64,000 bases of DNA from Schmidtea polychroa (lineage: Eukaryota), in the NCBI GenBank assembly GCA_044892525.1, contig CM097886.1, positions 45,012,001 through 45,076,000 of the forward strand. Reading direction: 5' to 3'. Below the pieces are notes generated by a model. It was not told where the DNA came from and ran no database searches. It saw only the letters and a program-made list of their open reading frames with translations. Positions 10,826-58,934 of this stretch are shown piece by piece. The first letter of the stretch is position 1, and every line of letters starts with the position of its first letter. Both the position numbers and the translations under genes were made by a program.

Positions 10826-10856
<31 letters not shown>

Positions 10857-11656: not shown

Positions 11657-11710
11657 ATTAAAAAGGGTTAAGTGATGTAAATAAATGTATATAAAATGTG
11701 GTATATTAGT

Positions 11711-34378: not shown

Positions 34379-34680
34379 CTAATTACAATCATTAATATCA
34401 GTTTTATCTCTTACGTCATATATAATCTTACTGTTACTCTGATTATCTTCCTTTATTACATCATATTTTTTTAATTTACTTTTCACGTTTTTAATACTAT
34501 CTTCTAAAATTACATCTGATTTAAATCTAATATTTTTTACCTTTAAATTTGATTTAGATATACTGTCTAAATTATTATTACTACTTTTAAAATTATACAT
34601 ACTGTCTAAATTACTATTACTATTATTATTAAAAAATATACTATACTTATCTTGGCGCACACAATCATCATTATTACCTT

Positions 34681-35844
34681 TTAATGCATGGCTCCTATCA
34701 TCTCGCCTAATGATGGAGCCCTCCCATTTGGGTGTCCATCACTTCGGGTAGACTGAGAATCCTCCGCTTCGTTTCCGCGGTCTTCCATAGCTGCCACTCT
34801 TCCATCGGCATATCTGTCTTGATATCGTCTGTTATCCTCGTAATTTCTAGATTGGTTTCTTCCTGATGATCGTGTGTCTGCTGTTCCCCAACATTGAAAC
34901 CGCAAATGACCACGTTTTCCACATCCTGAGCATGAAATCGATGGACATTCTCCCCGGTGATGGCCAGATTCCTTACAAGCGTTGCATCTCAATTCTGAAT
35001 TTATCTTGTTATTTTTACATTCTCTAATCATGTGTCCTTCTTTTCCACATCCATAACACTTCTTTTTTGGGCATTCTCGACTCGAATGTCCTAGTTCTTG
35101 ACAATTCCAACATGTAACAACGCGACTTCCACTTGCTCTGTTGTCTCTATGGTAATACTGTTGATTAGTATTCCTTCCAGAATCGAAGCTTTGAGCGTGC
35201 GGAATAGAATTGAATCTTGGTTCAAAATTTCGTCTTTCTTGAACATTCGAAAAATTGCGTTGTCGATCTTGTATATCGGCAAATCCTTGTCGTTTCTTTA
35301 TTACGTTTGCGAACGTTTCTTTTCTTTGCATAACTGCAATACTAGAAACTTCAATGTTGATAGCATCAACTTTACGAATTACGTCCTTGATCTCTTCGAC
35401 TTTTAAAGCATCTCGCATCTTGATCTCTTTTTGGATTTCTTTGTCTTTGACACAATGTATCAAAAAATAAGCGACTAATTCGTTTTTATCCCACTTGTGT
35501 TTCAATACTTTGTCGACCATTTTCTCAATCTTTTCGAAAAACACTGGCGCTGCATCGTTATCTTTCTCATAATTGTATAAGTTCAGAAAATCGCCTATCA
35601 GTGTTGACGGCTTCTTGAAAGCTTCTCTGAGTCTATCTTCAAAATTAATAAATTTGACATCGACGGCTTCATAAATCGGTAAAATATCTCTTGAAATAAG
35701 GCATTTTATCATCATATTTTGGTTATCTTGATCTAACCCACATAACTGAAAATATCGCTTACATTCTTCAATGAAAGTTTCGATTTCGTGTCTTCCGTCG
35801 TAAACATCCGGAATCATCTTATTCACTATTGCCAGGGTCGCCAT
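34681..35844 (-). CDS. gag: Gag of the nested Gypsy with four CCHC zinc knuckles
   Basis: CWNC..GH..REC, CYGC..GH..REC, CNAC..GH..GEC, CSGC..GH..FQC. Confidence 0.95.
   Translation of the reverse strand: MATLAIVNKMIPDVYDGRHEIETFIEECKRYFQLCGLDQDNQNMMIKCLISRDILPIYEAVDVKFINFEDRLREAFKKPSTLIGDFLNLYNYEKDNDAAPVFFEKIEKMVDKVLKHKWDKNELVAYFLIHCVKDKEIQKEIKMRDALKVEEIKDVIRKVDAINIEVSSIAVMQRKETFANVIKKRQGFADIQDRQRNFSNVQERRNFEPRFNSIPHAQSFDSGRNTNQQYYHRDNRASGSRVVTCWNCQELGHSSRECPKKKCYGCGKEGHMIRECKNNKINSELRCNACKESGHHRGECPSISCSGCGKRGHLRFQCWGTADTRSSGRNQSRNYEDNRRYQDRYADGRVAAMEDRGNEAEDSQSTRSDGHPNGRAPSLGEMIGAMH
34690..34732 (-). promoter_or_regulatory. -1 ribosomal frameshift signal of the nested Gypsy
   Basis: Slippery C CCA AAT in the gag frame (34732-34726), 5-nt spacer, hairpin GGCTCC-ATCAT..ATGAT-A-GGAGCC; the -1 frame is open into 34379..34660. 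Confidence 0.75.
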
Positions 35845-36166
35845 GTTAAATAAAACTAGAAGTCGAATTCAAATTATATTCAAAAATTATAACAATATCG
35901 GTTTGACTAAACAAATCATTAAATTGACGATTAAGCATTTCTAAATAACAATAATAATTATGTACGCCATAATATAATACGAATATAATACTTTAATATA
36001 TGTATATGTTAATTTCTTAATAGTAATAATTCAGATGTAATTTATTATTATAATATTATATTGTGCTAATAATTAAATCTTCCTCACAATACTATTATTA
36101 TATAATATTTTATTGGTTATATACACCGATATATACAGATTATTATATACAACATTATTCGATTGG

Positions 36167-37555
36167 TTACTCCGTTCTACCCTTCTCCTCTTTCCTCACG
36201 GTCATCTTGATATACACCGTGTCATTTCTTGCCATATCTTCTACTTTTTGTTGTAGGATGAACGTAGGTGCTCCTGTTGCTGATCCTTCTTCTTCCGTAG
36301 GTCTCTGGTAACACATTTGGTTTCCAGTTGTCTTGAAGCTTTGTTCGTGGATGCTTCGGTCATTCATTAGTGCAATATCGATTTTTGCCTGGAACGGCCA
36401 CTCTATTATTTCGTCGTATTCCCCTTTACATAACAGAAAGAAAATCGAAAAGTGTGTATCTGATCCGGTTCCGTCCCCGTTGGGATATATCTTCATTTTC
36501 ATTTTGTACCCATTTTTCCAAGAATGGAATGCAGGGCTTGTTATTCTTGTCTCTTCTCCGGTTTTTGCTTTTCGTATTCTTTCTTTTACTCCCGTTATTT
36601 TCCATATGTAGGGTGCTGTTGGGGTTATCTCATTTAGATTTATTTCCCGTATTTTCTGATGTAGCTCCTTGGCCTGATTATTACTGATTTCTATTCGGTT
36701 TATTTGCATCTTTATGTTTGCTCGGGCTTCTTCGAACGCTTCCCTTTCTTCTAGTAGTTCTTTGACTAACGCTTTCAACGATGTTATCTCTATCTCCATT
36801 TTTTTTACTTTCTCTTCGCTTTCTTGTAACGCAGTCGACCACATTTCTGCGTGGGTTGAAACATTTTCTACTAAATGATGTGGTAACTCCCCTCGGTGTA
36901 GTAGTTTCTGACAACCCTATTTACCTAGTACACATGTCATTCTTTTCTTTTCACATTCCCTTAGATGCTGTGCCACCTTTATTATTTCCCCTTGGTTACA
37001 TCCGTTTGGGCATTCCCCACTGAACTCTGCACATACTCTCTCCTCTTGGACATTGTGATGTTTGAGGGTGAGATTTTTCCACGTATCTATTTCTCCACAA
37101 TGTTCACATCTTTCCAATCTCTCTTCACACTGCCTTTGATGCTCTTTTTCTTCGCTTGCTCGAATAGTTTTATGGCACCTTTCACACTGGCCGACTCTGT
37201 GCATACATTCTCCCATATGTTGTACTACCTTCCATATTACTCCTTTCCATTCGCATGGGGCATTTTTGCATCCCAGGTTGGTGTTTAACATGTCTTTCAC
37301 TGCGGCTTTATCCTCGTTAGTGTCTTCTAAACTCGATATTAGTGTCTCTTTACACACCGGGCACCACTGTGGTCTGTTCTTTATTACTTCACTGATACAT
37401 TCTTTACATACTCTGCATCCACATTGAGTTTGGTGAGGTTCCTTTAACAACTTTTCACATATTCCGCACATAACATGTTTGTGTATTCTGATCGTTGTAG
37501 ATTTTCGGACTTGCTCGACAATCTCTCTGAACTCTTCTCTTTGTCGTTTATCCAT
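36167..37555 (-). pseudogene. TRAF: TRAF homolog of copy B, one in-frame nonsense (TGG>TAG at 36917-36919)
   Basis: Near-identical to 8145..9533. Confidence 0.92.
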
Positions 37556-38160: not shown

Positions 38161-41100
38161 CTATATACGTGAGTTTGGAGGGCGCTGAGCGTTCCAGGCC
38201 TCCACCCACTGTTCTTGTTTGATATCACTTGGTCGTTTCACTCGATGTTGGAAATTTCTGATTCGGGTCATCTCTAGTTCTCCGCGATGTCGTTTATCTT
38301 TAATTATTTTTATTGTTCCCCCCGTTATGATTAGGAAGGCCCCTGTTATTATTATCCCACTGATCCACATCATCTGCTTCACGCTTATACTCTCTGGTTT
38401 TTCCTTGTTTGTTAATGTTACTATTGCTTCTGTACTTTTCTCGTTCCCTCTTTTGCCATTCCCTTTCATCATCTCTCGTATTCTTGCTATTTCCTCGTTC
38501 ATACCCTCCTTTGCCATCTTTTGTATTTTTTCCATCTCTTCCTCCGAAACATAGTTGTCCTGAGCTTCCTCGCCGGTTTTCTTGTGCTTTCCTCCTTCGT
38601 CCTTTTCGTCGTGGTTTTTTCTTTTCTTTCCTCTTTTCCCCGGGTATCGTCGGCATTCTCTTTTTGATTCGTTCCTCCAGATACAAACCGTGTATTCTTT
38701 CGGCGGCTGCTGCTGCGTCACATATTGATGGCATCTCTCACCTGGTCCTAATCTTGAAATACAGACTTTGTGCTCTTTTCTAGGTTGGAGCTGCGTTATT
38801 ACTACTTCACCACCTTTTCCTAGGTGTACCTCTTTTCCTTTAACGTTCGTTATTCTCTTCCCGTCTCGATTTCGGTATGCTTCTTGTATTCTTCTGTTAT
38901 TGGTTCTGTGTCCTCATTTATCAGTACTAGTTTCTGATACGCTCTAGACATGCATCTTCCTAGTATGCACCTTTCCTTTAAGTCCCATTCTTCCTTTAAA
39001 TCCCACTGCTGCTCTTGTGCTTGCTTTTTCTTTTCTTGTTTTAGTTCATCCTCTTTGCTATCTTGATTCTCCGCTTATTTGGTTTCTTTTATCGTTCTCG
39101 TCCCTCCATGAGCTGTTACTAACTCTATCATGGTAAGCATAATTATCATTAATATCATATTTGTCTCTATTTCTTTGTTAGTGAAAGGTAGGCATACCCT
39201 CTGTTTTCCATTATTCGGTTTTTCCTCCTCTTTGGTCTTGGTTCCCGGGCTGTTTCCCTCTCCTCTCGTACCTGAATCCTTGTTTTCCGGTTTATCCTCT
39301 TCTGGTCTCTTTCTATTCCATTCTTTAACTAACTCTCTCAATTGAATACGACGATGTTTCCCAATTCGTTGTTGCTCGTTCTGATTTTGCGTGAATTTTA
39401 GGTCTTCTCTATTTAATACTATTAAAATAATTTTTGGTGTCCCCCCTTTAGTTAATGTATTCTTTACCATCGCGTTTTCTCCGTTTTCGTAGAATTCGTT
39501 TACATTTATCGCATATTTATTATTTTGTGGTACTCTCCATGTTAATAATAATTTCATTGCTTCTAGATTTTTCCGTACCGTATTCCATTGAAATTGAGAT
39601 GTGTTTTTGCACATATTTTCAACTTCTTCTTTTGTCGCATTTTTGCAAATAAATCTGATCATTTCCAAGTTTGGCTGTATGGTTGCCCAGTCCAATGTGG
39701 AGTTCCCTTCGTTTGATTTGTCGTCTAGTCTCGATCCTGATTGATGTAGGATGTGGAGTGTTTTTGGGTGTATTTTCGTTATAGCTGCATACATCATGGC
39801 GGTTTCGCCTTGTTCATTTTTCGTGTTGGTTTCCTCGCCCATCTCCCCAAGGATTCTCATGATCGTTATTGCTCTATTCTCTTTTGCAGCTAGTATTGCT
39901 TGTTGTAGAGGTGTTCTGGAATCCTTTGTTACCATCGTAAATGCTCGAGGCAAGGTTTTGATTTTCCCGATATCTAAACCCGTGGTTTGATCTCTTGCGT
40001 ATGTGTGTACGGCTTTTATTATTTTTGACAATATTATTTCGTCTGACAGCTCTAGCATTTCCTCGAAGAATACTTCTTTTGCTTTGCGTATTATTGCCTC
40101 TTGATCTATACTCATTGATTTGGTTTTGATGACGTTGTTTGTGACCGTTTGGTTCGTTGTCGACTTTGGTTCCCTTGATTTCCCATACCTTATTTTCGTT
40201 TTCTTTCCGTTTGGATTATTGATTCGTTCCTCTGCTGTAAGTATTTGGATAATATCCAGGTAATTCTCGCGGATGTTGTTCATTGTATCCATCGTGTATA
40301 ACACACTTACCGTTTCCCAATATTTATTTCGTACTTGGTTAGTAAATTGGAATATTGATTTTTCGAATGCGCCTATTCGCTTTTTTAATAACTGTTCATC
40401 TTTATGATTTGTGAATTTTATCCCTCGTTCTAGTAATTGATTCGGGATTTCGAATAAATGATGTCCTTTCATAGCTTCTCTCATCAGCGTGTTCTCTCCT
40501 CTCGTGAACGCTTCGTTTACGTTGATCATATAATCATTTTTAATTGGATTTCTCCATGTAATTAATATTCCGGTAATTGTTGTCAGTTTTTCTTTGATCG
40601 CTGTTAACAATCCATCGTACATGTTTCCGACTTCTCGATTGTCCTCATATGATAGTAGTTCCATCAATGACGTGAACGCCTCGGTACTTTTCCCTTCGAT
40701 AGCATGATGTAGTGCATTTTTCCGCTCGTGGTCTTGTGTAGTTATTTTTGATCCAGTATCAAGTAATGCGGTTATAATGTCTTTGGTTTTGCCTCTGTTT
40801 GCTGCTATCATTAATGGTGTGTAACCTTGGTTGTTTTCTTGTTCTGTTGATCGCTTGCAGTCGTGAAATGCTTCTATTGTTTCTAGTATTTGCTCGTTGT
40901 TACCTACTTTCATGAGTTTGTGTAATGGTGTGTCTCCATAATGATCTGTTATTGTAAATAATATTGGCCATTGACTTTTAACTACTCGCAATAACGGATG
41001 TGTCCTCTCTCTGTTCGCATAATTTTCGATCATCGTCAATAATCCTCCTAATATTTCGAAATCTAATCGATCTTTTGCCCATCCAAGTAATTTTATCTTT

Positions 41101-44068
41101 ACCTCTCGTACGATTTTTTCCGCTTCCGATGGTTGTATGCCCAATTTCTGTTTCATTCTTGCTAACGTCTTTTTCGATGACATATGTCCTCCCAATCTCC
41201 CATCGTGATATTGCGTTAGTAACTCTTTTCGTCGGTTTTCCGGTATACACATTAATCGTTTTTCCCCATCCATTATCAGCAACCAATCTTTCTCTATAAT
41301 ATATCGGTGTCGGTGTTTATCCATATGTTCTTTTAATTTTTGGTCTTTCGCATATACCTCCGTCTTTCCGGTTTTTACATAATCGATAATCCGTTTCAGT
41401 TCTACGTCTTCTTGTTGGTCCTTTCGCAATTGACAGAAATCCAAATCTTCCGCTACTATTAAGCATATGCGTTGCATTTCTGAATCCACCAAATCTGGAA
41501 AAATAAATCTTGACATACAATCGGCGTTGGCATTTGCTCTTCCCGCTTTGAATTTTATAAATGGGGAGTATTCTTGCAATTGCATGGCCCATCTCATCAG
41601 TCTACTGGACGCTTCTTTATGTTGCCCTAACCACACTAATGGTTGATGATCTGTGGTTATGCATATGTCATGTCCCCATAGTAAATATCGGAAGTGTTTG
41701 ATAGCTTGTATTATAGCCAATGCTTCTCGTTCTGTTACCGAATAGTTCTTTTCGTGCTTTTTGAATGTTCGACTGTAATACCCGATTACTCTCTCTCTTT
41801 TCCTTCATCGTCTAATTGTCCCAGAATCGCGCCTGCCGCGTACCCGCTTGCATCCGTTGCCAATAGAAATGGCTTCTTAAAATCTGGGTGTACGAGGATA
41901 GGTGCTTTGATTAGTTTATCTCTCAGCGTTTCAAACGCCTCTTGTTGTTCCTTCCCCCAAATGAACGAAATGTCCTTCTTTACTAATTCCTGGATTGGTT
42001 TTGCAATTCCTGCATAATTTTTGATAAATTTGCGATAGTATCCGCATAATCCTAGAAATTCCTGAACTTGGGTGACAGTTTTCGGTGCTGGACATGTTTT
42101 TATTTTCTCAATGTTTCTTGGGTCTGGCTCCTTTCCTTTAGCTGACACTATGTGTCCTAAAAACGTGACTTTTTCCTTTGCCCAATCGCATTTTGAAGGT
42201 TTGAGCTTGAGTTTCCATTGTCTTAATCTAATAAATACATTTCGGATATCCTCCAGATGTTGTTCGAATGTCGCTGAATAGATTAGCAAATCATCAATAT
42301 ATACCATACATTGTTTGATTCCATGAGTGACGAAGTTCATACACCTTTGAAATGATGCTGGTGCGTTGGTCAGTCCGAATGGCATTTTTCTGAACTGATA
42401 TAGATCTCGTCCCAGCGTGAAAGCTGTTTTCTCTTTGTCCTCATCTTTGACTTTAATCTGCCAGTATCCACTTTTTAGATCTAAAGAAGTAAAATATGCT
42501 GCCCCTTGCAACATCAATAACATCTTATTGATGTCCGGCAATGGATAGGTATCTCTCTTGGTTACTGCGTTTAACTTCCGATAATCGATACAGAATCGAT
42601 GCGAGCCGTCTTTCTTTTTTACCATGACCACTGGGAATTGCCAAGGTGAGCAACTCGGTTCGATTACTTTTGCGTCTAGCATCTTTTGTACTTCTGCTTC
42701 GGCTATTTCTTTTTGCATTTCTGCTAGCTTGTATGGTCTTAATGCAATTGGAGTTTCATCTATGAGGGGTATTGCATGTAGGGTAACATCGCATGTACCC
42801 AAATCTAAATCTGAGATGGCGAATATATCTTTATATTCTACCAACAATCGGTGCAATTTTTTCTTTTCATCATTCGTCAACAACATACTATCTATTGTCC
42901 ATAATTCATCATCTTTGATCATCTCGTTGGTCACTTTCGGTAATTCTATGTCCATCAATGGGGTCAATCTTCCCAATTTTTCGTTCTCATAAATGATTTT
43001 GTCTTCCTCTTCGAAATTCGTGATGTTGAGCGGTATCACTCCTTCTTGGTTTATTGTGACTATTTCTCTTGCGAGGGGTAATTCTCGTCGCTTTTCGAAT
43101 GATTTGCTTGGTTCAAAGATAACTTCTCCTTCCATACCCGTATCCACCTTTATCTGACAAATCATCTGCGATTTTGCTGGTACTATTATTTTTTCTGGAC
43201 ATCTGATTACTGCATTCATTTTGCATATTCTACCGGCTTTGTCTTTTAGACACATGGTTGTTAAGTCAATTACGACTTCTTTTAATAATTCTGGCATCAG
43301 GTCCGTTCCGATTATGCATGGTACGCTAAGTTTTGGTATTACTGCCAAATACGTTTCAATTTCGTTGTCCTGGTATCTCAATGTAGTCCACCATCTTCCG
43401 ACCACGTCTACTGTTTCTTTACTACATGCTATGATGTGAATTGTTGTTGATTCGATATCTTTCCAGTGCTTACTGGGGATTTGATTAATCGCTATCGCTG
43501 ATACATTAGCTCCTGTGTCTATCATAGCATTGGTTTCTTTACCATTGATTTGAATCATGACTGTTACTGCTGGACCTACAGGTAAACTCATCGCTGCTAT
43601 TGTTCTTACGTCATCTGCTTGATCTACACTTTTGGTACGTCGTGTTGGCATATAATGCATACCGGGTTGACTCGTTAATTGCGGATACATGTTTTGTGTC
43701 ATGGTCAAAGCTGCTTGTGGTCCCACGATATCTGGCGGTATATAGCTTCCATTGGCGATCCAGGTATTTGTCTTTTCCTTTTCCCAATATGGTGCCGTTT
43801 CCATTGGTTTTTCGTTTGGGTTTCTGTTTGGATATAGACATTTATCGTTCCCGTTATCATCGTCGTCACTATCGCTGTTAGATGATTGGCTTCTAAATCG
43901 GTCCAAAAATTTTTGCTTATTCTTTTTCAATTGTCGTCTTGTTGCTTCGTCGTACATTACTTTCCGGAATCGTCTGCCTACTTCCTCGTCGGTTCCTTTA
44001 ATCTTTGTTAGTATTTTGATCAATCGCTTTATCCGATGGATGTCTTTTGAGTGACCATGTAATACCAT
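38161..44068 (-). pseudogene. pol: Pol-ankyrin-membrane-module part of the copy B polyprotein, decayed
   Basis: GA slippage at ~41790; in-frame 1,074-bp deletion of the integrase core (equals A 3296-4369); 186-bp deletion (A 6212-6397); GAA>TAA at 39075; indels near 38900. Confidence 0.92.
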
Positions 44069-45951
44069 GTTTTTGCTAAAAATGGTAAAAAGCCTACTAT
44101 CATTTTCCAGTTAACTTTCTTTTCCCGCTTGTATATATCAAAACAAGCTAACATTTGTGTTAGTATTACTCTGACTATCTGAATTATGAGTATGATCCCT
44201 AATATCCCGGCCATCATTTGTCCAAAAACTAAGAATCTTCCCCCCATTGCTTTCATCATGTTTGACGTGGCTTGTTGAAAATGATCTGGCGATAATAGCA
44301 GTTCGTAATTCGGGCCTGATTGATAATTTGTTCCCCCAGTTATTGTAACCATATTTGACAAAATGGATTCTCGTCTGGCTGGGAAGAGTACGTTAAGTCG
44401 TGCTGTTTCTAGATCTTCTGGGGAATACATACCACCGTTTGACACGTCTATAGGTTTGAAATCCAGCTCTGTGGCGAGTTCTATTAATCCAAATTTCTTG
44501 GGCTCCTCGGATATGGTTTTTCCCGGTAACATCATCCATTTCCCATCGGGTCTTTCATACAAAGGTCCGTATGCATTAGAACAGTTAAAGAGATTTGGGT
44601 AGAAACCCACTGGATTCATAATTCTCGTGACTGGTTGGACGAATCGATTTTGTCCTTTATAACGGATTTCTAATTCATTTGCACATCTCTTTTCGGGTAG
44701 TATGGATTTTTCTGGCATTCGTGCATACGTCTTGGTACACTGGTATGTGTACATCACTTCTCCTACCATTCTACCAAAATGTCCGTCTGGTAGTGGGAGT
44801 GAGGGCATCGTGTTATCTGGGTGCGTTATCGCAATAGCTAGCTTTGTTTTCAATATTTCTTTATTCAATGAACAATCGTTTTGTATCAGATCGTAATATA
44901 CTTTTTGCAAGGTCGTTTGTCCGCGATGAAATAGAAAATCCATTTTATTATTTGCATATAAGTATAGTTTTACGTCCTCCGTTGCTATCTTTCCCACTGC
45001 TCTATCGATTATTTGTCTCGACATATAGATACCTGCGTAATTGGTTTTATATACTATACTGTCACATTTGGTGGTTTCTTTCTCTTTGATAAATCTCATA
45101 CCTAGATCTGGATCGTCTGTGATTAATGCTGTTGGTGTCTTCTGCGTTGAAAGTCTCTTTTCTCTGGGAGATGGTGGCATTGGTTTTCCATTTCGCATTC
45201 TCACTCTGTCGTTTCCATCCTCGTCGTTCTCGTTCTCATAAATTTCTCCTTTTACTTCATTGAACAAAGCACCTTTTAACAGTTGGAGTCGGCATTTTTG
45301 GGTATTAGCTTCATAGATTATAGTTGATACTCCTGTCCTGCATACGTTTTCTGTAGCTCTACACGCTGGGTTGGTCTTCATTTGGTAATTATTTGCGTCA
45401 AATTGCGCTTCGTATTCCTTTAGTTCAACCGTATAGGACTCGATTACTACTACTCCCGATATTACCTCGCCTCGGATCGTATACGTACCTCCGTTACATG
45501 ACCCATCTGATGATTTTACTTTTCCGGATACGTAAACACTTTCGGTTTTAATCATTCCAGTTTGTCCGTGAATCGTCACCCCGTTATGCATTTTTAGCGC
45601 TCCGGTTCTAAATAGCTCTTTACAGTCCTCTCGTTGTATTGATACGATTTCTTTATCCAGACCGGGTAGTATAAGAGTCGAATACGAATATTGTCCACAG
45701 TAATATGCGAGTACCTTTTTTGATACTACGCATTCCCTTGCTTGCGTTCTGATGAAATCTGATTCTTGATATACATGGTAAGTAACTTTTGTTCTTACTA
45801 TGTCTAATTTGTTGGGTGATGCTTGTCTGCATTCTTCTATGTCTCTCAATGAGTATTTATCTCTCATTATCATATTATCACAATCGTAGATGGTAAAACC
45901 CGTTGCTCCACTTGTGCACAACATCCATATCATCATAGTCATCATTAACGA
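44029..45951 (-). CDS. env: Envelope glycoprotein, chuvirus-G-like (class III fusion family), with internal signal peptide, furin site and C-terminal TM
   Basis: Signal SLMMTMMIWMLCTSGATG/FTIYDC; motifs YYCGQYS, DGSCNGGTY, YLYANNKMDFL, GEVMYTYQC, FVQPVTRI, GGMYS..L..AR..VLFP, FG..AGILGI match my recollection of chuvirus-type glycoproteins; REKR at 45154-45165. Confidence 0.82.
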   Translation of the reverse strand, partial: SLMMTMMIWMLCTSGATGFTIYDCDNMIMRDKYSLRDIEECRQASPNKLDIVRTKVTYHVYQESDFIRTQARECVVSKKVLAYYCGQYSYSTLILPGLDKEIVSIQREDCKELFRTGALKMHNGVTIHGQTGMIKTESVYVSGKVKSSDGSCNGGTYTIRGEVISGVVVIESYTVELKEYEAQFDANNYQMKTNPACRATENVCRTGVSTIIYEANTQKCRLQLLKGALFNEVKGEIYENENDEDGNDRVRMRNGKPMPPSPREKRLSTQKTPTALITDDPDLGMRFIKEKETTKCDSIVYKTNYAGIYMSRQIIDRAVGKIATEDVKLYLYANNKMDFLFHRGQTTLQKVYYDLIQNDCSLNKEILKTKLAIAITHPDNTMPSLPLPDGHFGRMVGEVMYTYQCTKTYARMPEKSILPEKRCANELEIRYKGQNRFVQPVTRIMNPVGFYPNLFNCSNAYGPLYERPDGKWMMLPGKTISEEPKKFGLIELATELDFKPIDVSNGGMYSPEDLETARLNVLFPARRESILSNMVTITGGTNYQSGPNYELLLSPDHFQQATSNMMKAMGGRFLVFGQMMAGILGIILIIQIVRVILTQMLACFDIYKREKKVNWKMIVGFLPFLAKTWYYMVTQKTSIG

Positions 45952-46069
45952 ATTTATTGATGCTTTTCTGCTTGCGGGATCTTTCATCGGTAGTTCCCAT
46001 TCTAGTTCATTTAACAGCTTTTTCAATCTAACTTGCATCGATCTTTCTTGCTCATTTTTTCGTGGCGCT

Positions 46070-46518
46070 TGTATCAGTCTTTTCCATCCTCCGGCACGAA
46101 TAATATGTGGTTCAATAGTATTCTCTATGATTGAAACGGTCATTTCCACATGATTTGCAAACTGTTTATTTGGTATTTTCCTCGCAGCCAGTCCCATCAA
46201 ATTATACATCAAATACGTGATTACCACTAGATGATGTTCGTCATCATTTGCATTTGTCGTGAGCTGTTCAATCACTCTCTTCGTTTCATCCCAATCCGTT
46301 TTGGTGGTTTTCGTTTTCTCTTTGATTAACTTTGGGATTATCCCCGAAACGATGTGCCATAATTGTCTAGCTTCCGTACTGGCTACTTTCCGTTGCCACA
46401 AACGTCTAAGTTGTGGGTTTGTTATTATTAACATATCTTTGATCAATTCTCGTATCCATTTTTCTCCTCTTTCGATCGTTGGTTGGGCTTCCTTTAGATC
46501 CCATACTATTTTATCCAA
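46070..46518 (-). CDS. Bcl-2-like helical domain (degenerate BH1, recognisable BH2) immediately before the Env signal peptide
   Basis: VIEQL..helix..IENTIEPHIIRAGGWKRL parallels VVEELF..NWGR..LNRHLHTWIQDNGGWDAF. Confidence 0.5.
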
Positions 46519-46779
46519 TTTTTATAATCGGACTTGCCCTTGTTCTTGCTTTAATTGTTCTTTGGTTTTGAACTCAGACTTTTCTCCTTGTTTCTTAGGT
46601 CTTCCTTTTGCCCGTTTTTCCATCATCGTTCCGGCTTCTCTGGTATTTTCGTAATTCGGATTTCTTTCGTTATCCGTTCTGGGTAATGAGCTATCGTTAT
46701 TTCTTAGCCACTCATTCCATTCATCTATTATTTTATCGGTTTGACCTTCTGGTGTTACTTTCGTTGGTTCTCTTTGCTT

Positions 46780-49227
46780 CTAGAATTGTTCATCCGTTTC
46801 GGTTTCCGTAGTATTGTCGATGATTTCTTTGATGTTTAGTTTCGTTGGTTGTTGATAACTTGTTGATGGCTGGTTATTAGTCCACATTTCGGCTCCTGTC
46901 GGCCATCTTACTAATAGCGGTGATCTTTCTCCTGGTTCATCGTCACTATCTTCGAGGATAATCTCTTCAACTTCTTCAGTTTCATTAGATTTACTTGGTG
47001 CTTTGTTCGGACTTGGAGTACTCAAACTGCCTTTTGTTGGTTTAGTAATTTTACTTTTCCTTTTTAACGGTTTCCCCAACGTTTCTGCCATCGTTAATAC
47101 ATTTGTCTCTTCCAATCTCATGGGTGTTATTCCGACGTCTGCATTATCGTCTAGTGATTTTCCTTGCAGTTGTAGATGGAAAGGAGTTTCGTATGCCAAT
47201 TTCTTTTTTAATTCCCTGATTTTGGTGGTTGGGTGTACTTCTACTTCCTCAACATTCTTATCTGGGTATTTGATTCGGATTCGGTATCTCTCTTGGGTAT
47301 CTTGTGACCACTCATGGTTTCGCCACTTCCCGATAATTTGCTCCAGTTGTTCCGGGTACCATTCGTTGTATTGTCGGTATTCTTCTATAGTTTTTACTAT
47401 CTCTCTCAGATAATGGATATTATCCGATATTTTTAAAATGAAGTTAGCTAATGTTATTACTTGTCGTTTTTGATTTTTCGCTCCCTTTATTAGGATATCG
47501 CCTAATTGCTTATATCTTTCTCTCTCTTCTCGTTCTCTTGCTTCCGTCGCTTCCTCGCCGTCCATATCAGCATATTCACGTTCCTTTTTCCTCATTGCAT
47601 GAATATGTCTTGCTTCATTTTCGCTTTCTGATGTGACATCCGTCTCGCCTTCGTCATCTGATGTCTGTTCCCTTGCTTCCTCTTCATATTCTGGAGGTTC
47701 CTCTTCTTCTTCCTCCGATTCACTTTCTGTCTCACCAATGTCTGTTTCTACGAAGATTCCTTTCCGGATTTCCCATTCCTTATTTTCTGCATTCCACACT
47801 CTTTCCCATGGGGTTCGTCTGCAGGATCTGGTACTTAGTTTCGTGATTTTTCCTTGTAGTTCTTTTTCTTTTAACCATTGTTGGTGGATTTCAATTATTT
47901 CTGTAGATTTTTGATATAACGTTTTCATCCGGTCTCGTATTTCTTTTTGATAGGTTACATCTCTTGTTCGAAATTCATCCATTGGTACTATCCTGATTAT
48001 CTGATGATTGTCCCACATACCCATTTCGCTTAACGAGGTGTCGTCTTCCGCTCGTAATATTATTTTATCGTACATCATGACTACATCATCCACCATACCA
48101 TCACTACTTTCGCTACGTACCTTTTCCGTTATCTCTTGGTTTATCTTTGATACCAAGTCATCCACTGTACTCTGATTGCTCATTTTTATTCGTCGTTTTT
48201 CTTCGTTCGGTAACCATATGGTTATTTCCAACCTCTGTGGCTGGGTTTCTTTTAACCTTCCATATTTGTGGATCAAATTTATGGTTCTCCAATCACTCAT
48301 CCGGAGCATTTCTGTATCTCGCAATCGGCTCATTAGTTCGTACATGGCTGGGGCTCGTCTGGTGATGAGTAAATCCCAGTTGTCTTCTACTTGTTCTTGA
48401 ATTTGTTTGATCAGCTTATCCAGGTTTCGTCTCAGAGTACATTGTTTTATTTGTTCTAATTTCAATTTGATATTAAAATCATATTCTGCCTTGGCATCTT
48501 TAGCCCAATCGTAAAGGTTGGCTGGTTGTTTTTCTTTATGCAACTTCACTATTTGCGTTTCTCCTGGCCATATTAGTGCATCTACTAAGTGCATATCTGG
48601 TTTGATCTGTTCTCCTTGGTATTGATACAGATATTCTTTCTTTCTCGAACTTCCCAAATGTTCTCGTATCCAATCGAAAAGTTCGTCGGTGACTGTACTT
48701 TTGATCCACATTCTTTCAAGTCCTCTGCTCGTTCTGATTTTTATTACATACCGCGTGGTATCGGCCTGCTTCATTTTTTCCATATACTTTTTTATAATTG
48801 ATTTTTCCTCGTTTGGTATTAAATCTTTCTCGTTTCCTTCCAATTTCATCACTTTTTGTACGAATCGCCTGAATGGTATTACATCGATGAACTCTTGGTT
48901 TCTCACTACCACCGGGAGTATTTCGGCTACCTGTTTTATCGCTTCCTCCCTTGCTTTTCTCAACTTTATTTCGATATCCTCGTCTTCACTTCCACTGGTT
49001 ATCTCGCTTTCGCTTTCTTCCTCTTTGATTTCCCCTTTCGGAGGTTCGCTTATTTCGTTTAGCTGTAGTATTTCTCCACCCAAACTGCTCACATAGTCTT
49101 CGTCTGAGGACGACGTACCTTTTGTCCTTTTCATCATGTTGATTCGCAAATTTCTCATCCTAGGTACTCTCTTTAGTTTTCTATTTTCGAATATCGTTGT
49201 TTCTTCTGATTCCGATTCTTGTAGCAT
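46780..49227 (-). CDS. Polyprotein segment between Gag and Env with three ubiquitin-like domains and acidic linkers
   Basis: UBL-like units at ~48540-48750, ~47985-48232 and ~47090-47287 (e.g. IRIKYPDKNVEEVEVHPTTKIRELKKKL..LQLQGKSLDD); same frame as env across stops at 46780 and 46522. Confidence 0.65.
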   Translation of the reverse strand: MLQESESEETTIFENRKLKRVPRMRNLRINMMKRTKGTSSSDEDYVSSLGGEILQLNEISEPPKGEIKEEESESEITSGSEDEDIEIKLRKAREEAIKQVAEILPVVVRNQEFIDVIPFRRFVQKVMKLEGNEKDLIPNEEKSIIKKYMEKMKQADTTRYVIKIRTSRGLERMWIKSTVTDELFDWIREHLGSSRKKEYLYQYQGEQIKPDMHLVDALIWPGETQIVKLHKEKQPANLYDWAKDAKAEYDFNIKLKLEQIKQCTLRRNLDKLIKQIQEQVEDNWDLLITRRAPAMYELMSRLRDTEMLRMSDWRTINLIHKYGRLKETQPQRLEITIWLPNEEKRRIKMSNQSTVDDLVSKINQEITEKVRSESSDGMVDDVVMMYDKIILRAEDDTSLSEMGMWDNHQIIRIVPMDEFRTRDVTYQKEIRDRMKTLYQKSTEIIEIHQQWLKEKELQGKITKLSTRSCRRTPWERVWNAENKEWEIRKGIFVETDIGETESESEEEEEEPPEYEEEAREQTSDDEGETDVTSESENEARHIHAMRKKEREYADMDGEEATEAREREERERYKQLGDILIKGAKNQKRQVITLANFILKISDNIHYLREIVKTIEEYRQYNEWYPEQLEQIIGKWRNHEWSQDTQERYRIRIKYPDKNVEEVEVHPTTKIRELKKKLAYETPFHLQLQGKSLDDNADVGITPMRLEETNVLTMAETLGKPLKRKSKITKPTKGSLSTPSPNKAPSKSNETEEVEEIILEDSDDEPGERSPLLVRWPTGAEMWTNNQPSTSYQQPTKLNIKEIIDNTTETETDEQF

Positions 49228-49315
49228 TTGGTGGTTTAACTGACTGATTTGCTCCTTGTTTTGGTTGTTTCCCTCTTTTATTCTTATTTCCGTTTCTTCA
49301 TGTTTCTTTTCTATT

Positions 49316-50740
49316 TTATCTTTTATCTTTTTCCAGAATATTTTCTGAATTCTCTGGTTTCCTTTTAAAATCGTGGTTGAATTCTGTTTTCATTTCCGTT
49401 GTTGTTTCTTTTACCTTTTCTGGTTCCGTCATGGGTACTACCCTTGGGTTTTTCCCGTAATTGTAGCAATACTGGCTTTTCAGGTCTTTTACTAACTTCA
49501 TCATATTTATTCGCAATGGTTGTTCTTGGCGTTGTTGGTTGCGTTCTTGTTTTATCCTCTCTTCCTCGGCCTGCAGTCTTTGCCATTCTTGTACATGTTG
49601 ATGTACTTCATAATTGTTGAGATTTTCGGTACTCCTCATCATACGTATATTCTGGGTTTGTTGTGGTGCTGATTCTGGTCTTGGTCTCATCATTTGTTGC
49701 ATCATCTGTTTCATCTGCGAGATTTCCTGCATAACGTTCATTTGGTTTCCTTCGCTAGGGTTACTTTGTCGTTGCGGATTCGCCATATAATTATTATTTC
49801 GCTGTGGTGGTCGTTGTTGTTGACCCCTTTCTCGGCAATCTCTGGAGATGTGACCTGGCTGACCACAGTTAAAACAACCTCGCAATTGGCATACATTTTC
49901 GGTATGTCCACGCCGTCCGCAACGATTACAATTTGAATTTCTATAGCAATCTCTGTCCCAGTGTCCTGATTTACCGCATGTTCGGCACTGCTTGTTATCG
50001 TTCATATTTCGTCAATTATTAAAATTGTTCTCATTATTCAGGTTGTTACGATTACCATTATTCCCATTTGATCGTCCTTGTGGTGGTTTAAAAATTTGAT
50101 GCGCTCCTGGTATGAATTGATTCATTTTTGGTTCCTGGTTGTTATTATCTCCATTATCCGTTTTTACTTTGGCTGTCGCTATCCTCCCATCCTCTTGCAT
50201 GATGTTCATTTGTGCTGGGAGGTGGAGTTCGCACCTCGTAGCCCAATCTATGGCCTCTTCTAACGTTGTACACATCTGACAGCCTACAGATGCTCTTACT
50301 TCTTCTCGGCGTAATCCCTCTATGAAATAACCGATCAAATTTTCTTCTGGTAATTTCCCATTCATTGCTTTCTTTGCCAATCTCCGCAATTCGCTGGCAT
50401 ATAACGTAATGGATTCATTTGCTCTTTGTTTCCTATTTGCTAGTTCGCCGAGTGCTTGATTTATTGGTTTGCTAGCTCCGAAAGTTTTCTTCAGGAATGT
50501 TTTGATATCGTCCCATTTATCTAATTTCGTATTTCTTTCTTTAGCCTCTAAATATACTTCTAATGCGCTATCGCACAAAAACAACGGCATCCTTTTACTA
50601 ACTGCTTCGGATGTCCATCCGCACACATCGATATAAACTTCGAAGTTGGTTATGAACGTTGCTAACTTGTTTGCATTTCCGTTGAACGGTTCTCCTCTGA
50701 ACTTCTCTTTGTACTCGTCGGTTTTTACGACATTCGTCAT
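49316..50740 (-). CDS. gag: Gag of the giant element: capsid-like domain (50012..50740) plus three CCHC knuckles (49316..50005), split by one in-frame TGA
   Basis: EPFNGN..FITNFEVY..GW, ELANRKQRANESI..YASELRRLA, FIEGL; CRTC..GH..RDC, CNRC..GH..NVC, CFNC..GH..RDC; a 7-bp GATAAAA duplication at ~49315-49328 breaks the frame to the next segment. Confidence 0.9.
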
Positions 50741-52869: not shown

Positions 52870-53412
52870 TCATTCACCATAATAAACCATATGGGCTTCC
52901 TTTATTTCATATTTGCACAACGTGCATCTTTTTAAGTCTTTTACACATTCCTCACAGTGACTGAGGTGTCCACAAGGCAAGAATAGTACGCGGATAGGAC
53001 GAAGTTTACACGCAAGACAAGTTCGTAGTAGGGTCAGTTTTTCTTGTATTTTTCGCTCGATTGTATCTGATATTGTATTTAATGGATCTTTTATACGTTG
53101 ATAATCAAGATTTAATGTTGGGTGGTTCAATCTCTCTTGATACCACTGATACACGGTTTCAGGGTTTATCTTCCCATCTGGGTGACTTAGTCCTGTGGCT
53201 AATAACATGTGGTTGGGGACGACTGGTGTTTGTCCGATTGCTTGGAGTAGTATGATGTTAATTCTTTCTCTCTTTTGTCTCAGTGTTTTAAGGGAGTCAT
53301 TCTCGAGGTTTATGAAGTTGATTAATTGTTGTATCTGGTCCACGAATTCTGTCATGTCTATTAGAAAAAAAAAATGTTTTAGTAATATATTACTAATTAG
53401 TGGTGGCTTCAT
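52870..53412 (-). CDS. RING-HC E3 ligase-like protein with IAP/MDM2-type C-terminal RING, no BIR (likely start MTEF at 53355)
   Basis: CLAC-x11-CGH-x3-CEEC-x6-CTLC, VLFLPCGH, RING at the extreme C-terminus; lies inside the element, 3' of the PBS. Confidence 0.85.
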   Translation of the reverse strand: MKPPLISNILLKHFFFLIDMTEFVDQIQQLINFINLENDSLKTLRQKRERINIILLQAIGQTPVVPNHMLLATGLSHPDGKINPETVYQWYQERLNHPTLNLDYQRIKDPLNTISDTIERKIQEKLTLLRTCLACKLRPIRVLFLPCGHLSHCEECVKDLKRCTLCKYEIKEAHMVYYGE

Positions 53413-53644: not shown

Positions 53645-53664
53645 AAATCCCGGCTGAGCCCCCA
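53645..53664 (-). other. Primer binding site, tRNA-Pro
   Basis: TGGGGGCTCAGCCGGGATTT, 7 nt after the LTR end; complementary to a tRNA-Pro-type 3' end (AAATCCCGGnnGAGCCC-CCA). Confidence 0.88.
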
Positions 53665-53849
53665 AAAATCATGTTGGGGTTACACCTCGGCTGACTACTC
53701 TACCATATTGTCTGGTCTAAGGGTTGATTGTCCATCTCGAATAAAATGTGCCGCCGCTTTGTCAACCTGGAGTGAAACCCTACATAACTTTCTTCCAGCA
53801 TAGTGCCCGTGAATTACTTCACGTTGGTACTGCACTATGCCGGCGAGTA

Positions 53850-54803
53850 TATGAATGTATATGGTTGAATGTATATGTCATCATTGAACACCAATAGTTC
53901 GTGGCGACCTCTGATTATGAAAAACTATAATTTTAGTGAATGTAGGTTCGTAGACCCGTTCTTTTGTGTATGAGAATGATTTTAGGTTGGAAACAAGGCT
54001 GGTCAACGTCGCGAGCTATATACGTCTACGACGACGTTGATCACTCTTGTTCAGCATAAATCATAATGAAATACAAAACAAAAAAAATAAATAAGAGGTT
54101 GACTCAATTATAATACATTTAATAAAACATGGGGCGATCATAAAAAAAATATATACCCATTTTTGCATGTGCAAGTACACGTGTATGTATTGATGCATTA
54201 AAACAAACTCGAATTCCTTTTATTCTATAATTTTCTATTTTTGATATTTTTAATGGCAATTTTTGTGCCATAATTTTTGTTTTTAAATTTTTATTCTCTA
54301 ATTATTTTTTTGCTAAATTTACCTCCATGATGGATTTGGAACGGTTCCAGAACATTCCATATTGATTTTAATTTTATTTTTATTTTAATGATGTTTTTCC
54401 TAATTTCTCTTTAAGAATTTTTATTTTTATAGCTAATTTACTTTATTTTGATTACTTTTATTGTTTTATATGGCTTTCATGATGCTTATCGCTATTCTTA
54501 TGAAATGTTCTGGGATTTTCTAGAATTTTTCAATGTTTTACCATCTTTCTAAGCTATTCGAGTCTGTTTTTTGTAATTTTGTGTTTCGTTGCTATTTTTG
54601 AGTTAGTTTCTTGCACTACTTGCGTTTGTATTATTTTATTTAATTTCTGTGTTTCTATTTTTTGTTGTTTTTCTCTTAATTAATATTGTTTATTTGGTAT
54701 ATTTTTCTATTTAATTGGACTTATTGCTATTTGCGTGCTATGTACCTACGCACCTTAGTCACAATTTAGAGTTTTGGGTCTAGAAATTATTTCTAGCCCA
54801 ACA
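53850..54803 (-). mobile_element. LTR lineage D, 5' part
   Basis: Starts TGTTGGGCTAG at 54803; followed on + by AAGT, matching the 4 nt before 24296. Confidence 0.8.
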
Positions 54804-55426
54804 AAGTTTATATTTTGCAAAATTTTGACAGAAGTATACTTTATTTCGATTTTTATTTAACTAGTTGAAATGTGATTTTGCTTGAATAATGATGACAACT
54901 AAAATAAACAATAGGGTTTAATATTGTTGGGGTTACACCTCGGCTGACTACTCTACCATATTGTTTGGTCTAAGGGTTGATTGTCCATCTCGAATAAAAT
55001 GTGCCGCCGCTTTGTCAACCTGGAGTGAAACCCTACATAACTTTCTTCCAGCATAGTGCCCGTGAATTACTTCACGTTGGTACTGCACTATGCCGGCGAG
55101 ACGCCAGCAAGCAGGTGAGCTTCTGCCTTAAAACTACTCCTTGCTGAGGCCTCGACTTCCCATTCCTGACTGCCGATAGAAGGGCTTACGTCCATTTCAT
55201 TACACCACCGGTTGCCAGAATTCTACGAGAATAAATCGGGGATTATTCGTTAACTCTCGAAGACGCTATATTCAACTTATTTAATTAAAATCTGACAGTT
55301 TATAAACGGAAGTAAGTAAACGACGAAATTTATTAGTATTCAATATTAATACACAAGGAGTTAATCGTACACATCACGAGTGTTCGTGGAGAAAAAGAAA
55401 TGTCACAATAAATGCGATACGACTTC

Positions 55427-56293
55427 CTAACGGACTTCATGAATCTCATGTTCCCATTCGGTGTCGGCGAGCAACTCGTCCAGATCAAAGAATTCGGAGG
55501 CATTTTCCTCCCATGTCACGCCAGCCGCCGAGATGATGCGCGCTGGGGCCCCTATTGTCAAGTCGATGGACACTCGAGAACTACCACCGCCAGTAGAGTC
55601 TTCTATTGATAGGAGGCTTGGCTTGGTGGACGCACGCTCACGCTGCCTCCGCTTTCGTTCCGCACGCGATAATTGTTTGCGCTTGGGTTTGCTCGTAGTT
55701 GTGGTGGTTTGAAGCGCAGTGGGTATAGAGATGTTAGCAGCTGAAGTCTTGCTAGTACCCGGGAGGACAACGTCCGGTCGCCCAGGTGAAAGTTCGGTTT
55801 CCACGCAGTCTCGACACGGTCTCTTGAACGGCGGAGATGGATCCGAGGAAGGGTTGTGATGAGGCGGAAAGATGTTATCGGCCTCTTCGATAGGAATCTG
55901 CACTATTTTCCGGGTTGTAGCCGCCTGCACGTAGACTTTGTGCAGTGCCTCTGACTGTTCTTTGATGAGACTTCTTTGGGCACGGCTCTCAGATATTAGC
56001 GCGTCCCGGCAATGCTCGCTACGATCGAGCTTCTTTTGGATCTCTTTCATCCGAGCGGGACTAAACCATGTCCCTTCTAGCTCATCTATCTTCTTTTTGT
56101 AACGTCCAATCTGGGTTTGCAGATCTTTGATGATGGCGTTTTTATCCGCACAAGAGAAGCACGGACGTAACGCAGGTTTGGTAGTTGGTATCATGCTCGC
56201 TATAAAGAATGAGGTTAAGACGTAATCTGTACATGGTTGAAGAAAATACGTGGAATACGAATAATCGACTGCCCGTGGATATTCAGCCATCAA
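55427..56293 (-). CDS. LTR-encoded protein (CxxC, coiled coil, basic NLS-like stretch, acidic/aromatic C-terminus); likely start MIPT at 56194
   Basis: 288-codon ORF inside the LTR; homolog in LTR-D; acceptor CTTAAC..TTCTTTATAG just upstream of that ATG. Confidence 0.65.
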   Translation of the reverse strand: MMAEYPRAVDYSYSTYFLQPCTDYVLTSFFIASMIPTTKPALRPCFSCADKNAIIKDLQTQIGRYKKKIDELEGTWFSPARMKEIQKKLDRSEHCRDALISESRAQRSLIKEQSEALHKVYVQAATTRKIVQIPIEEADNIFPPHHNPSSDPSPPFKRPCRDCVETELSPGRPDVVLPGTSKTSAANISIPTALQTTTTTSKPKRKQLSRAERKRRQRERASTKPSLLSIEDSTGGGSSRVSIDLTIGAPARIISAAGVTWEENASEFFDLDELLADTEWEHEIHEVR

Positions 56294-57889
56294 ACAACAA
56301 TGAATGTCCTTACTCGTCGATTTTGATTATGTACAAAATTACTTAATTCCCTTAAATGATACCAGTTTGACGGATAAAATTCTTTACCTAACTGAACTAT
56401 GCTGATTTGACGAATGCAATTCGATTAATACAGGTTCAGGGATACCTTTACTAATCCTAAAATTTCTCCTACCAATCGGAATTCCATTTATGATCAAAAA
56501 TTGCGCGACCTCGACGCTAACGACCTTCCCAACGCTCTTGCCCCCTTCACCCACTCATATGATATTATAGGTGGTGGTTTGAGGATCGATGATATTTAGT
56601 AAAATATTAGAATAATAATAATAATAATATAATGATGTTTAATGAAAACTTTGATACATTATTTATCGTGCTTTGTTGAAGATTCTTACGATTATTTAAA
56701 TGGGCTACTGAACGAAATTGTTAGTATTATCTGTAAGCCTAATTTAAATCATGCTAATTTTCTAAAACATAAATAATTTATAACTAATTTAAGAGTGCGA
56801 TTTGTGATCGTAATCAGGATTATAATTATCTGGTGATTATTCCATAATTAGTCTAGACCAAATCTTTATCCAGTAGTATGTGGGAAGCGATAGCTTGAAT
56901 ACAATAGTCTCAGACCAGTTGCTATCTAACATGTTTCTCCGTCATTATCTCGCAGAGAGGAAAAATTACTATCAGTATGACATATGGCCAAGTTTGTTGC
57001 TGATGATATTTATGCGAATGTTCTCCATGTCAGTGTGTGGTGTCATGCATTATGTGAACTCTCGTATGTTTGCCGTATCAATGTGAATTTGCGTGTGGTT
57101 GTTTATTACTTGAAATGAATTTTGGATTTTATCGCACTTGCTGCTAATTCCATCAACATCCCGCTACTCATATGTTATCCGATACTCATTGTGCGGTGGA
57201 TTATGTAGATTTCCTCATGCTACTGCTGATGTTTCTCAATATGAAGTTAAACTCAAAATTGAACTTTTAGTGGAATTCCTGACGATCAATAAGAAGGTAA
57301 TGAAGAAAACTACATTCGACCCCTCTCGGTACTACACTGAAAATTTGGATTTTACTCATTGGATTCGTGAATTTCGCAACTATGCCTTAGACATTGCCTG
57401 TTCGATCTCTGGGGAAGGTATGGCATTGAACTAGTTTTTTCTTTGTATAAAATAAATTTTGTTGAATTGAATTTAGAGATATTTCGTAATTCTGTAAATA
57501 TTTTTGGGAATTAATTAATTGTTGGGATTCGCTACCATATGTACTCTCGACCGATTTATCAAAATTAATTATGGGTGAAAAAATACGATAGACTACATTC
57601 ATGGAGTTCTGGCAGCTGAAAGTCACAGGATCTAATTTTCGTAAAATTATGCATTCAGGTGATGTAGGTTATGAAATGACACCAATTTTTAGACGAATTT
57701 ACTGACTAATTATATGACAATTTTCTGACAACTAAGATGTGATAAAGTTCAAGAAAACGAACCGATGAGCTAATAGCGTGACCCCCTCAATCACCGTGCG
57801 AATTGTCAAAAATGCATCCATTTATACATCTGTCTTTTCAATCACTGCCTAACTACGGTTTTCCTAGAGCAATCTTTTCATAGAATTTA

Positions 57890-58020
57890 GTCGCACCTTC
57901 AGCGATTGGACCCGTGAAGAAGCCTTCACATTTCGGCCCAATCTAGCTGCGTGATTGAAATACTCCATGTCCACCGGCTGAGCTCCCGAAGGCACCTCAT
58001 ACCATGACATGGAGTATCTC
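57890..58020 (-). ncRNA. Conserved structured RNA element, solo-LTR copy
   Basis: Perfect 12-bp stem ATACTCCATGTC/GACATGGAGTAT, CC-UUCG-GG loop, second hairpin GATTGGGCC..GTGAAG-GCTT-CTTCAC..GGTCCAATC. Confidence 0.6.
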
Positions 58021-58934
58021 AACTCCACGTTACTCGTTACTTTGAACAGCATAAAAATATACTTCATAAAAATAATCATAAGAATTGCCAAATCATATCG
58101 AATTAATGACTTTAGATTTTTAAACCAGTTAATTTATCAAATTTATTAATCGGGATCAAGTGAAAAGAAAAGATCAAATGTAACTTAAAATTTTAATTAT
58201 TTAATAAATATACATAGTTATTGTTACTTCAAAAAATTAAGAATAACAAATGAATACAATCTCTTACTGTCACGTTAGGCTGAATCGAAATATAAGGCTC
58301 GTCTTTTCTAAAATAGTCAACTGGTGTCGAAGCTGGTAGTCGGTTTTATGAGGTTCTCGAGTAGTTTCTCTGAATTTATTGAAGGTTTTCTGGTCCTAGA
58401 GTCAGTCCTGTAATGTTTTTAGAAATTAACACTCACGATACTTATGCTAAAATTTCTTTACCTGTAATGTTTTTTCAAATTAACACTGATTTTTATGATT
58501 TTGGCGTTGGTTTATATACTAATTTTTCATTTACGCGGACCAATCAAAATTGAGTACCGCTTATTTTATTAAATTAATTTGTTTTTTCCTATTTCTTTGG
58601 GTATTTTACTTATTTCCCTATTTTTATTATATCTTTTATTTATTTCCTAAATTCCTTATTATTTATTGCGTTTTCCGGTATCTTATTCATTATGTTATTA
58701 CTTTATTTTTTTAATTTTTTAATTTTTATTTTTTGTTTTAGTTTTTATATCTTATTTATGGTTTATTTTATGTCTTGATTTATTTATTCCTAAAATTGGT
58801 GGTCTTATTTTATTTTATTCGCCTCTTATCTATCTTATTTTTCGACGATCATTTTTTCCAATTCAGCCCAACAATATTATAATTAATTTTCATAATGATG
58901 AATAGTCGCCGAGTCCGTCTGCAATTCTCCCATA

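Follow-up and report, generated by a model that had tools for sequence, protein, structure and literature searches.

Layout of the Element and Position of the RING Gene

The window, a 64,000-nucleotide stretch of Schmidtea polychroa DNA, contains an open frame at 52870 to 53412 on its minus strand that encodes 180 amino acids when counted from the first ATG; the parts of the RING-bearing element and the lone LTR described below lie on the same strand. A sequence-only reading had assigned this whole frame to an accessory gene inside a retroelement. The frame is open as described, but the conserved gene begins at ATG 53355 and spans 52870 to 53355 (161 amino acids plus stop). The longer form was dropped because the upstream in-frame ATG is present in just 18/60 copies, and its 19 additional codons (53356 to 53412) are unconserved and probably belong to an intron or leader. 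The conserved protein consists of an N-terminal helical region without a named family (residues 1 to 110, 53026 to 53355; helices 3-15, 22-39, 48-57, 65-77, and 79-110), an IAP/IDOL-like C3HC4 RING core (C113, C116, C128, H130, C134, C137, C144, and C147; 52915 to 53019), and a C-terminal tail (52873 to 52914) with an invariant Tyr158 at the position of the aromatic residue found in IAP RING tails.

The RING open reading frame (ORF) is internal to the element, as had been proposed, since it sits between a perfect tRNA-Pro primer-binding site (PBS) and gag and occupies the same place in other copies. The PBS had been read correctly: positions 53645 to 53664 are a 20-nt exact complement of the 3' end of tRNA-Pro(TGG) plus CCA, compared with the tRNA genes of the same genome (ARAGORN). 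It begins 7 nt after the LTR end (gap 53665 to 53671), and that 5' LTR is a remnant of which the last 176 nt are left (53672 to 53847). The tRNA-Pro(TGG) genes form a 475-nt tandem array elsewhere in the genome (G000:C1:130.90-130.95 Mb; L196), and the tRNA-Pro(TGG) pattern occurs 2212 times, a large pool of primer tRNA.

The first piece of the polyprotein, gag (Retrotrans_gag, 50012 to 50740), lies 2129 nt past the RING stop. It is followed by a broken polyprotein (39075 to 50005) with CCHC knuckles, a SUMO-like stretch (a weak Pfam match), a Monjiviricetes-type fusion glycoprotein, PR-RT-RH, a partial integrase, and ankyrin repeats. The order of gag, CCHC, SUMO-like, fusion protein, and PR-RT places env between gag and the protease, and in a neighbouring copy of the family the end of env and pol share one frame (11 to 7102). 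Besides ankyrin, the element carries MATH/TRAF cargo as a separate ORF (36167 to 37555), here in two pieces, one with RING and zinc fingers (36917 to 37555) and one with coiled coil and MATH (36167 to 36844). The TRAF that the sequence-only reading had attributed to the element is thus real, split in this copy and whole in the neighbouring one (8145 to 9533). Next come an unrelated 5.2-kb gypsy element nested in this one, whose two 245-nt LTRs are identical (30921 to 36088), further frames without Pfam matches, and the 3' LTR, of which the initial ~730 nt are left (27249 to 27977). No BCL2-like domain was matched by Pfam in the ORF pieces scanned. The RING-bearing copy is broken at several points. 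A second member of the family, 89-97% alike, reaches into the window with its 3' part (1 to 13666, plus strand) and has its RING ORF outside it, 8.4 kb to the left; a lone full-length 3.9-kb LTR of the same family, with ATAT on both sides, lies at 54925 to 58873. Tandem copies of the RING ORF are 26.2-26.3 kb apart, consistent with an element of ~30 kb. Both LTRs of the RING-bearing element are cut complementarily and flanked by 99.8%-identical 411-nt stretches (26840 to 27250 and 53850 to 54260), an arrangement that looks as if a one-LTR circle had inserted aberrantly and duplicated a large stretch of target.

Domain Content and Predicted Fold

A Pfam scan of the 180-amino-acid form found a single domain, zf-C3HC4_3 (residues 130 to 172, E 4.8e-11). 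No BIR domain was detected by Pfam in the RING ORF, its structure model has only helices before the RING, and comparison of the BIR-RING protein of this genome with the window gave the RING of ORF 52870-53412 as the sole match, in agreement with the earlier statement that a BIR is lacking. The best sequence matches among solved structures were the RINGs of cIAP2, cIAP1, XIAP, and BIRC7 (E 9e-10 to 2e-6), with IDOL next; those of MDM2 and MDM4 were marginal and far weaker. Of the initial label of a C-terminal "IAP/MDM2-class" RING, the IAP half is the one that sequence and fold matches favor. A word-seeded homolog search with the 161-amino-acid protein yielded 20 candidates, none of them significant, and a profile search of 1.84 billion representatives yielded one full-length homolog, unnamed and nearly identical to the sister-family ORF described below; its other matches covered mainly the RING.

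The best of five structure models (pLDDT 89.8; the other four, 64-69) consists of five helices followed by the RING. In this model the RING and the helix preceding it are predicted to superpose on IDOL, cIAP, XIAP, and BIRC7 with an rmsd of ~1 A over ~60 residues. Viral fold matches were to RINGs of baculovirus IAP and of large DNA viruses, and were confined to, or lay mainly in, the RING. The N-terminal 110 residues, modeled at a pLDDT of 60.7, matched just common helical bundles (Z at most 7.6). A UBA origin of the middle helices was considered and rejected, since these helices did not match the UBA-like stretch of the BIR-RING gene and no UBA was found among the fold matches of the low-confidence N-terminal model. 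The protein thus resembles cIAP1/2, XIAP, BIRC7, and IDOL/MYLIP in its C3HC4 spacing, preceding helix, aromatic C-terminal tail, and modeled RING fold, and differs from them in having no BIR, CARD, FERM, or UBA match and in its atypical E2-facing residues.

Conservation of the RING Gene among Copies

A genome search with the RING ORF gave at least 150 matches at 73-100% identity (best 150 of 3586 candidates scored), in line with the expectation that the gene would be present in other copies, and we compared a sample of 60 distinct places (62 loci minus two duplicates). The 486-nt frame was without indels in all 60 copies and intact in 57, and a PBS-like motif was located no more than 450 nt upstream in 56. 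In each of the 12 loci fetched at 10 kb, an LTR with its own ORF was followed by the RING ORF and then, 2.1-2.6 kb later, by gag; the PBS pattern was found in 11 of these 12. The RING is thus not that of a neighbouring host gene, an outcome that would have refuted the sequence-only reading.

The median dN/dS of the RING ORF was 0.10 (range 0.05-0.18) for 36 pairs drawn from 9 representatives, which are non-independent and in many of which dS is near saturation, often >1. By part, it was 0.07 for the RING and 0.11 and 0.15 for the N-terminal parts. For six pairs, the coding sequence was 76-91% alike versus 56-72% for the leader. Seven of the zinc ligands were invariant in 60/60 copies and the eighth was kept in 59/60. 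These results demonstrate that the RING ORF is a working part of the family under purifying selection, and its copies at the same place together with this selection show that it is neither a host neighbour nor a relic.

Relationship to Burro1 and to a Sister Family

Burro1/GYPSM1 of Schmidtea mediterranea has been described as a ~30-kb gypsy element with long LTRs, the order gag-SUMO-like-env-PR-RT-RH-IN-ankyrin, TRAF/MATH cargo, and accessory ORFs tied to ubiquitin and apoptosis, in a text that cites Jurka 2007 and Grohme 2018 (PMC6431247). Compared by this published description, the RING-ORF element shares its giant size, a 3.9-kb LTR, the polyprotein order, and the ankyrin and TRAF/MATH cargo. 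Unlike Burro1/GYPSM1, the RING-ORF family lacks MATH matches in its polyprotein and a BIR gene in both window copies, and section 7 of PMC6431247 mentions no RING ORF standing alone between the PBS and gag. At the level of the RT, the family shares 88-89% identity with a Burro1-like sister family in the same genome. By these sequence comparisons the element is assigned to a Burro-type giant gypsy family that is not Burro1 itself, since the BIR cargo is absent. The planarian Burro elements are the apt comparison rather than ORF1 of plant Ogre elements, which had been invoked at first: the likeness to Ogre ORF1 is positional only, and the Pfam scan gave no match to an Ogre family.

In the sister family, MATH lies inside the polyprotein, as in Burro1, and a whole TRAF ORF follows pol (L098, L100, L102, L061, and L063); the tRNA-Pro primer site is the same. 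A separate 160-amino-acid ORF was found between this PBS and gag in 3/3 sister elements followed upstream, and at least 150 matches to it were found at 94-100%. It aligns with the RING protein without gaps (43/151 identical, 28%, E 7e-23) and has an AG directly before its ATG in 20/20 loci. Between the two families the RT is 88-89% identical, gag ~50%, and TRAF 29%, so that the RING ORF has diverged in the manner of other cargo.

A BIR search of the genome gave at least 150 matches, mostly to ORFs of 392-393 amino acids with BIR and RING, and in two sister-family elements followed, such an ORF lay directly after the TRAF ORF, 3' of pol. IAP and TRAF cargo in Burro is already in print (PMC6431247 and PMC13465017), and Burro1 is reported, in a text that cites Lee et al. 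2026, to protect planarian stem cells via B-IAP, a protein with RING and BIR (PMC13465017). The 392-amino-acid BIR-RING ORF is likely the counterpart of B-IAP. The RING ORF is not B-IAP but a second IAP-type RING gene common to both families, because the sister family has its homolog plus the separate BIR-RING gene. RING ORF and B-IAP are alike in being element-borne, in their C-terminal IAP-type RING, and in an acceptor-like AG just before the ATG; they differ in that B-IAP has BIR and RING, with its likely counterpart 3' of pol, while the RING ORF has 161 amino acids, no BIR, and a place 5' of gag. A RING ORF standing alone in this position, between PBS and gag, is not described in the literature that we searched, which did not include Grohme 2018 and Lee 2026, either of which may show the ORF in its text, figures, or supplements. 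In Burro-type elements, strong selection thus maintains a second IAP-type RING, and one high-copy family has that RING alone. Experiments directed at "the RING" or at element transcripts may consequently touch two different genes.

We asked how the two RING genes are related by building RING-only trees (45 and 36 rows, ~65 columns). The two upstream, pre-gag RINGs joined each other (support 87/79 and 89/66), and the BIR-RING gene grouped with two host-like RING exons (100/99 and 94/91), apart from the upstream RINGs. In the AU test, a single clade of the upstream RINGs and the BIR-RING gene was not rejected (p 0.065, or 0.13 with the host-like exons added), so an old duplication linking the RING ORF and the BIR-RING gene is possible. 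These data also bear on whether the RING ORF could be a passively carried remnant, decayed or truncated, of either B-IAP or a host IAP. Its RING does resemble that of the BIR-RING gene and the AU test tolerates one clade, but the similarity is confined to 44 RING columns, both genes coexist in the sister family, and the best trees set them apart. The selection signal, with dN/dS at ~0.10, refutes passivity, and we consider this origin highly improbable.

Expression of the RING Gene

Translation of the RING ORF by plain scanning is argued against by the leader, in which a median of 7 ATGs lie between the PBS and the start. The sequence-only reading had pointed to a strong splice acceptor 2 nt before ATG 53355. 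The motif is there, ten T followed by CTAATAG (53358 to 53374), and a YAG occurs at -5 to -3 of the ATG in 60/60 copies. Use of this candidate acceptor is supported by that conservation and by a splice from an LTR donor in one probable RNA run: two contigs of the run have the LTR near a GTAAG donor joined to an acceptor before the LTR's own ORF (GT..AG, 2124 nt skipped), and the joints listed for the DNA-like run do not include it. No joint onto the RING acceptor itself was present among the 15 of 48 joints listed for the probable RNA run. The probable RNA run covers the RING ORF, and its variants are those of one subfamily at 15/15 listed sites. Most long loci have GTAAG sites ~600 nt inside the LTR, and those of the window are at 58267 and 27380. 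The 5' LTR remnant of the window copy is without this donor, and the lone upstream LTR, 1.1 kb off and in the same orientation, has one (58267). From these sequence features it is likely that an LTR transcript is spliced onto the RING acceptor; the GTAAG donor would then join the site 2 nt before the ATG and skip the leader with its many upstream ATGs.

The LTR itself contains a sense ORF of ~250 amino acids (55427 to 56290 in the lone LTR; L065:4553-5317 and 11 other long loci) that is 59-96% conserved across subfamilies, has no Pfam family above the cut-off, and has before its ATG the acceptor used in the probable RNA run. A faintly similar LTR ORF is present in the sister family. We considered whether splicing might fuse the LTR and RING ORFs and set this aside, as the former ends in a stop of its own and the latter has an ATG that is conserved in the 60 copies. 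Further accessory ORFs in the two families (L033:1273; window 37555 and 30800) have an AG 0-2 nt before the ATG, which suggests one splicing scheme for all cargo genes.

Chemistry of the RING and Its Possible Functions

The eight zinc ligands are in place in the RING fold, in the sequence as well as in the model. Tyr158 was kept in 60/60 copies, and the corresponding aromatic tail residue mediates dimers of IAP RINGs. The E2-facing residues are atypical. At C+2, two residues after the first Cys, 58/60 copies have Ala or Ser, compared to Ile, Val, or Met in 118/143 database RINGs; the second-loop Pro is absent in 59/60; and the linchpin position is Lys in 48, Arg in 10, and Thr in 2. By its position, the C+2 residue would be the equivalent of BRCA1 I26, a hydrophobic E2 contact in other RINGs, and BRCA1 I26A is deficient in E2 binding (PMC8647010). 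In the sister-family RING, Ile at C+2 is combined with the absence of the second-loop Pro and an Asp linchpin in 20/20. The E2 face of the BIR-RING gene is canonical (Met/Pro/Arg in 27/27). The proposal of an "E3 ligase" is therefore plausible but weakened by the atypical E2 face. Because of these residues, either a weak or partner-dependent ligase or a decoy has to be considered.

As a decoy, the protein would be a catalytically poor scaffold that pairs with host IAP RINGs or, in the sister family, with B-IAP, as MDM4 does with MDM2, and so tunes their activity or stability. Each family has its own departure from the canonical E2 face (Ala/Ser at C+2 in the RING-ORF family, the Asp linchpin in the sister family, and Ser in 24/24 Polinton-type RINGs, for which see below), and the zinc ligands and tail aromatic are kept all the same. 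According to PMC12326332, Arg is the preferred linchpin of a model RING, Glu, Ala, and Tyr are least active, so that acidic and Ala linchpins fall at the low end, and heterodimers with an inactive scaffold RING are known. However, the linchpin is Lys or Arg in 58/60 copies, non-canonical linchpins also occur among the 143 database RINGs (Asp in 11, Asn in 9), and the conserved 110-residue N-terminal domain suggests substrate recruitment. We regard the decoy as unlikely, though it is the next best reading after the one favored below.

The sequence-only reading had reasoned that the RING protein partners the element TRAF, as cellular IAPs partner TRAFs, forming a mobile TRAF-IAP-like signaling ligase. 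Both families carry a TRAF and a RING gene, which are equally diverged between the families (29% and 28%), although this is expected from shared descent alone. The RING-ORF family has no BIR-IAP, so there is no other element-borne IAP to partner its TRAF, and the N-terminal helices could pack on the coiled coil. On the other side, cIAPs bind TRAF through the BIR domain, which the RING protein lacks, and in the sister family the gene adjoining TRAF is a different, BIR-bearing IAP. The rationale from cellular IAPs was thus found to be weak and does not carry over. Complex prediction with three TRAF coiled-coil/MATH chains and the RING protein scored 0.00 twice, without controls, and is uninformative either way. 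We judge such a partnership improbable.

The reading that we favor, tentatively and at slightly less than an even chance, is that of a conserved, BIR-less accessory gene encoding a helical bundle plus RING, which is expressed from a spliced LTR transcript and whose product forms a RING dimer that ubiquitinates host proteins weakly or in dependence on a partner. That the gene acts in some manner on the host ubiquitin protein-tagging system is likely. Under the favored reading, Tyr158 of the tail would drive dimerization in the manner of IAP RINGs, the substrate or partner would be chosen by the N-terminal bundle, the dimer would ubiquitinate a host target, and the element might benefit from a host cell that is alive and permissive during its expression. 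With its small size, a coding part free of introns, and an intact frame in most copies, the gene lends itself to direct tests of ligase activity, dimer partners, and knock-down.

Similar RING Genes in Polinton-Like Elements

A weaker profile match led to a third group in the genome, with at least 150 matches, made up of BIR-less frames of ~180 amino acids that combine a helical region with a RING. These frames lie next to protein-primed polymerase genes (Pfam DNA_pol_B_2) in four loci (L101, L155, L158, and L164) and near an adenovirus-type protease in a fifth (L159), and on the basis of these neighbours we place the RING frames of several long loci within Polinton-like elements. Others are in inverted pairs or 1-kb tandem arrays with no polymerase or protease genes in view, and for 3/7 ORFs scanned, two resembling Polinton polymerases and one resembling a capsid protein, Pfam gave no polymerase or capsid match. 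One tandem array holds dozens of copies at a period of ~1 kb (G000:C1:8.68-8.73 Mb; L152-L154), and the large inverted pairs are 6-12 kb apart. No description of Polinton-borne, BIR-less RING look-alikes was found in the literature searched.

Like the RING ORF, these Polinton/Maverick-like ORFs have a helical region, an IAP-type RING at the C terminus, and no second-loop Pro; unlike it, they are carried by DNA elements with a protein-primed polymerase and an adenovirus-type protease. Their proteins are colinear with the Burro-type RING proteins over 149 columns and group with them (support 91/76). When the N-terminal parts alone were compared, the match had a probability of 1%, in the same register, and 1/30 column shuffles scored higher. 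Kinship of the two kinds of RING gene is suggestive only.

The Polinton-type ORFs bear on a further explanation, in which the RING protein serves the element's own cycle by attaching ubiquitin to Gag or to the polyprotein with the envelope, so as to direct sorting, processing, or budding. The element does carry a fusion glycoprotein and SUMO-like domains, and the RING gene is the first gene after the PBS in both families. Polinton-like DNA elements, however, have similar RING ORFs and no Gag, which would point to a host target if these ORFs are true relatives. A role in the element's own cycle seems quite improbable to us. A broader scenario, which we think rather unlikely, is that the BIR-less helical-RING genes are an old lineage, found only in mobile elements and exchanged between giant retroelements and Polinton-like elements, whose products are dimer-forming decoys or tuners of host IAP ligases; they would be a second arm of cell-death control beside B-IAP in Burro and the sole IAP-type gene in the RING-ORF family. 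A true link to the Polinton-borne ORFs would mean that host-control cargo is common to retroelements and DNA elements.

The AAT-rich middle of the window itself contains repeats at 15052 to 15149, 16936 to 17033, 18900 to 18997, and 19828 to 19925 that match the flanks of Polinton-type RING ORFs at 78-94% over 100-160 nt. These mid-window repeats are probably Polinton terminal sequence.
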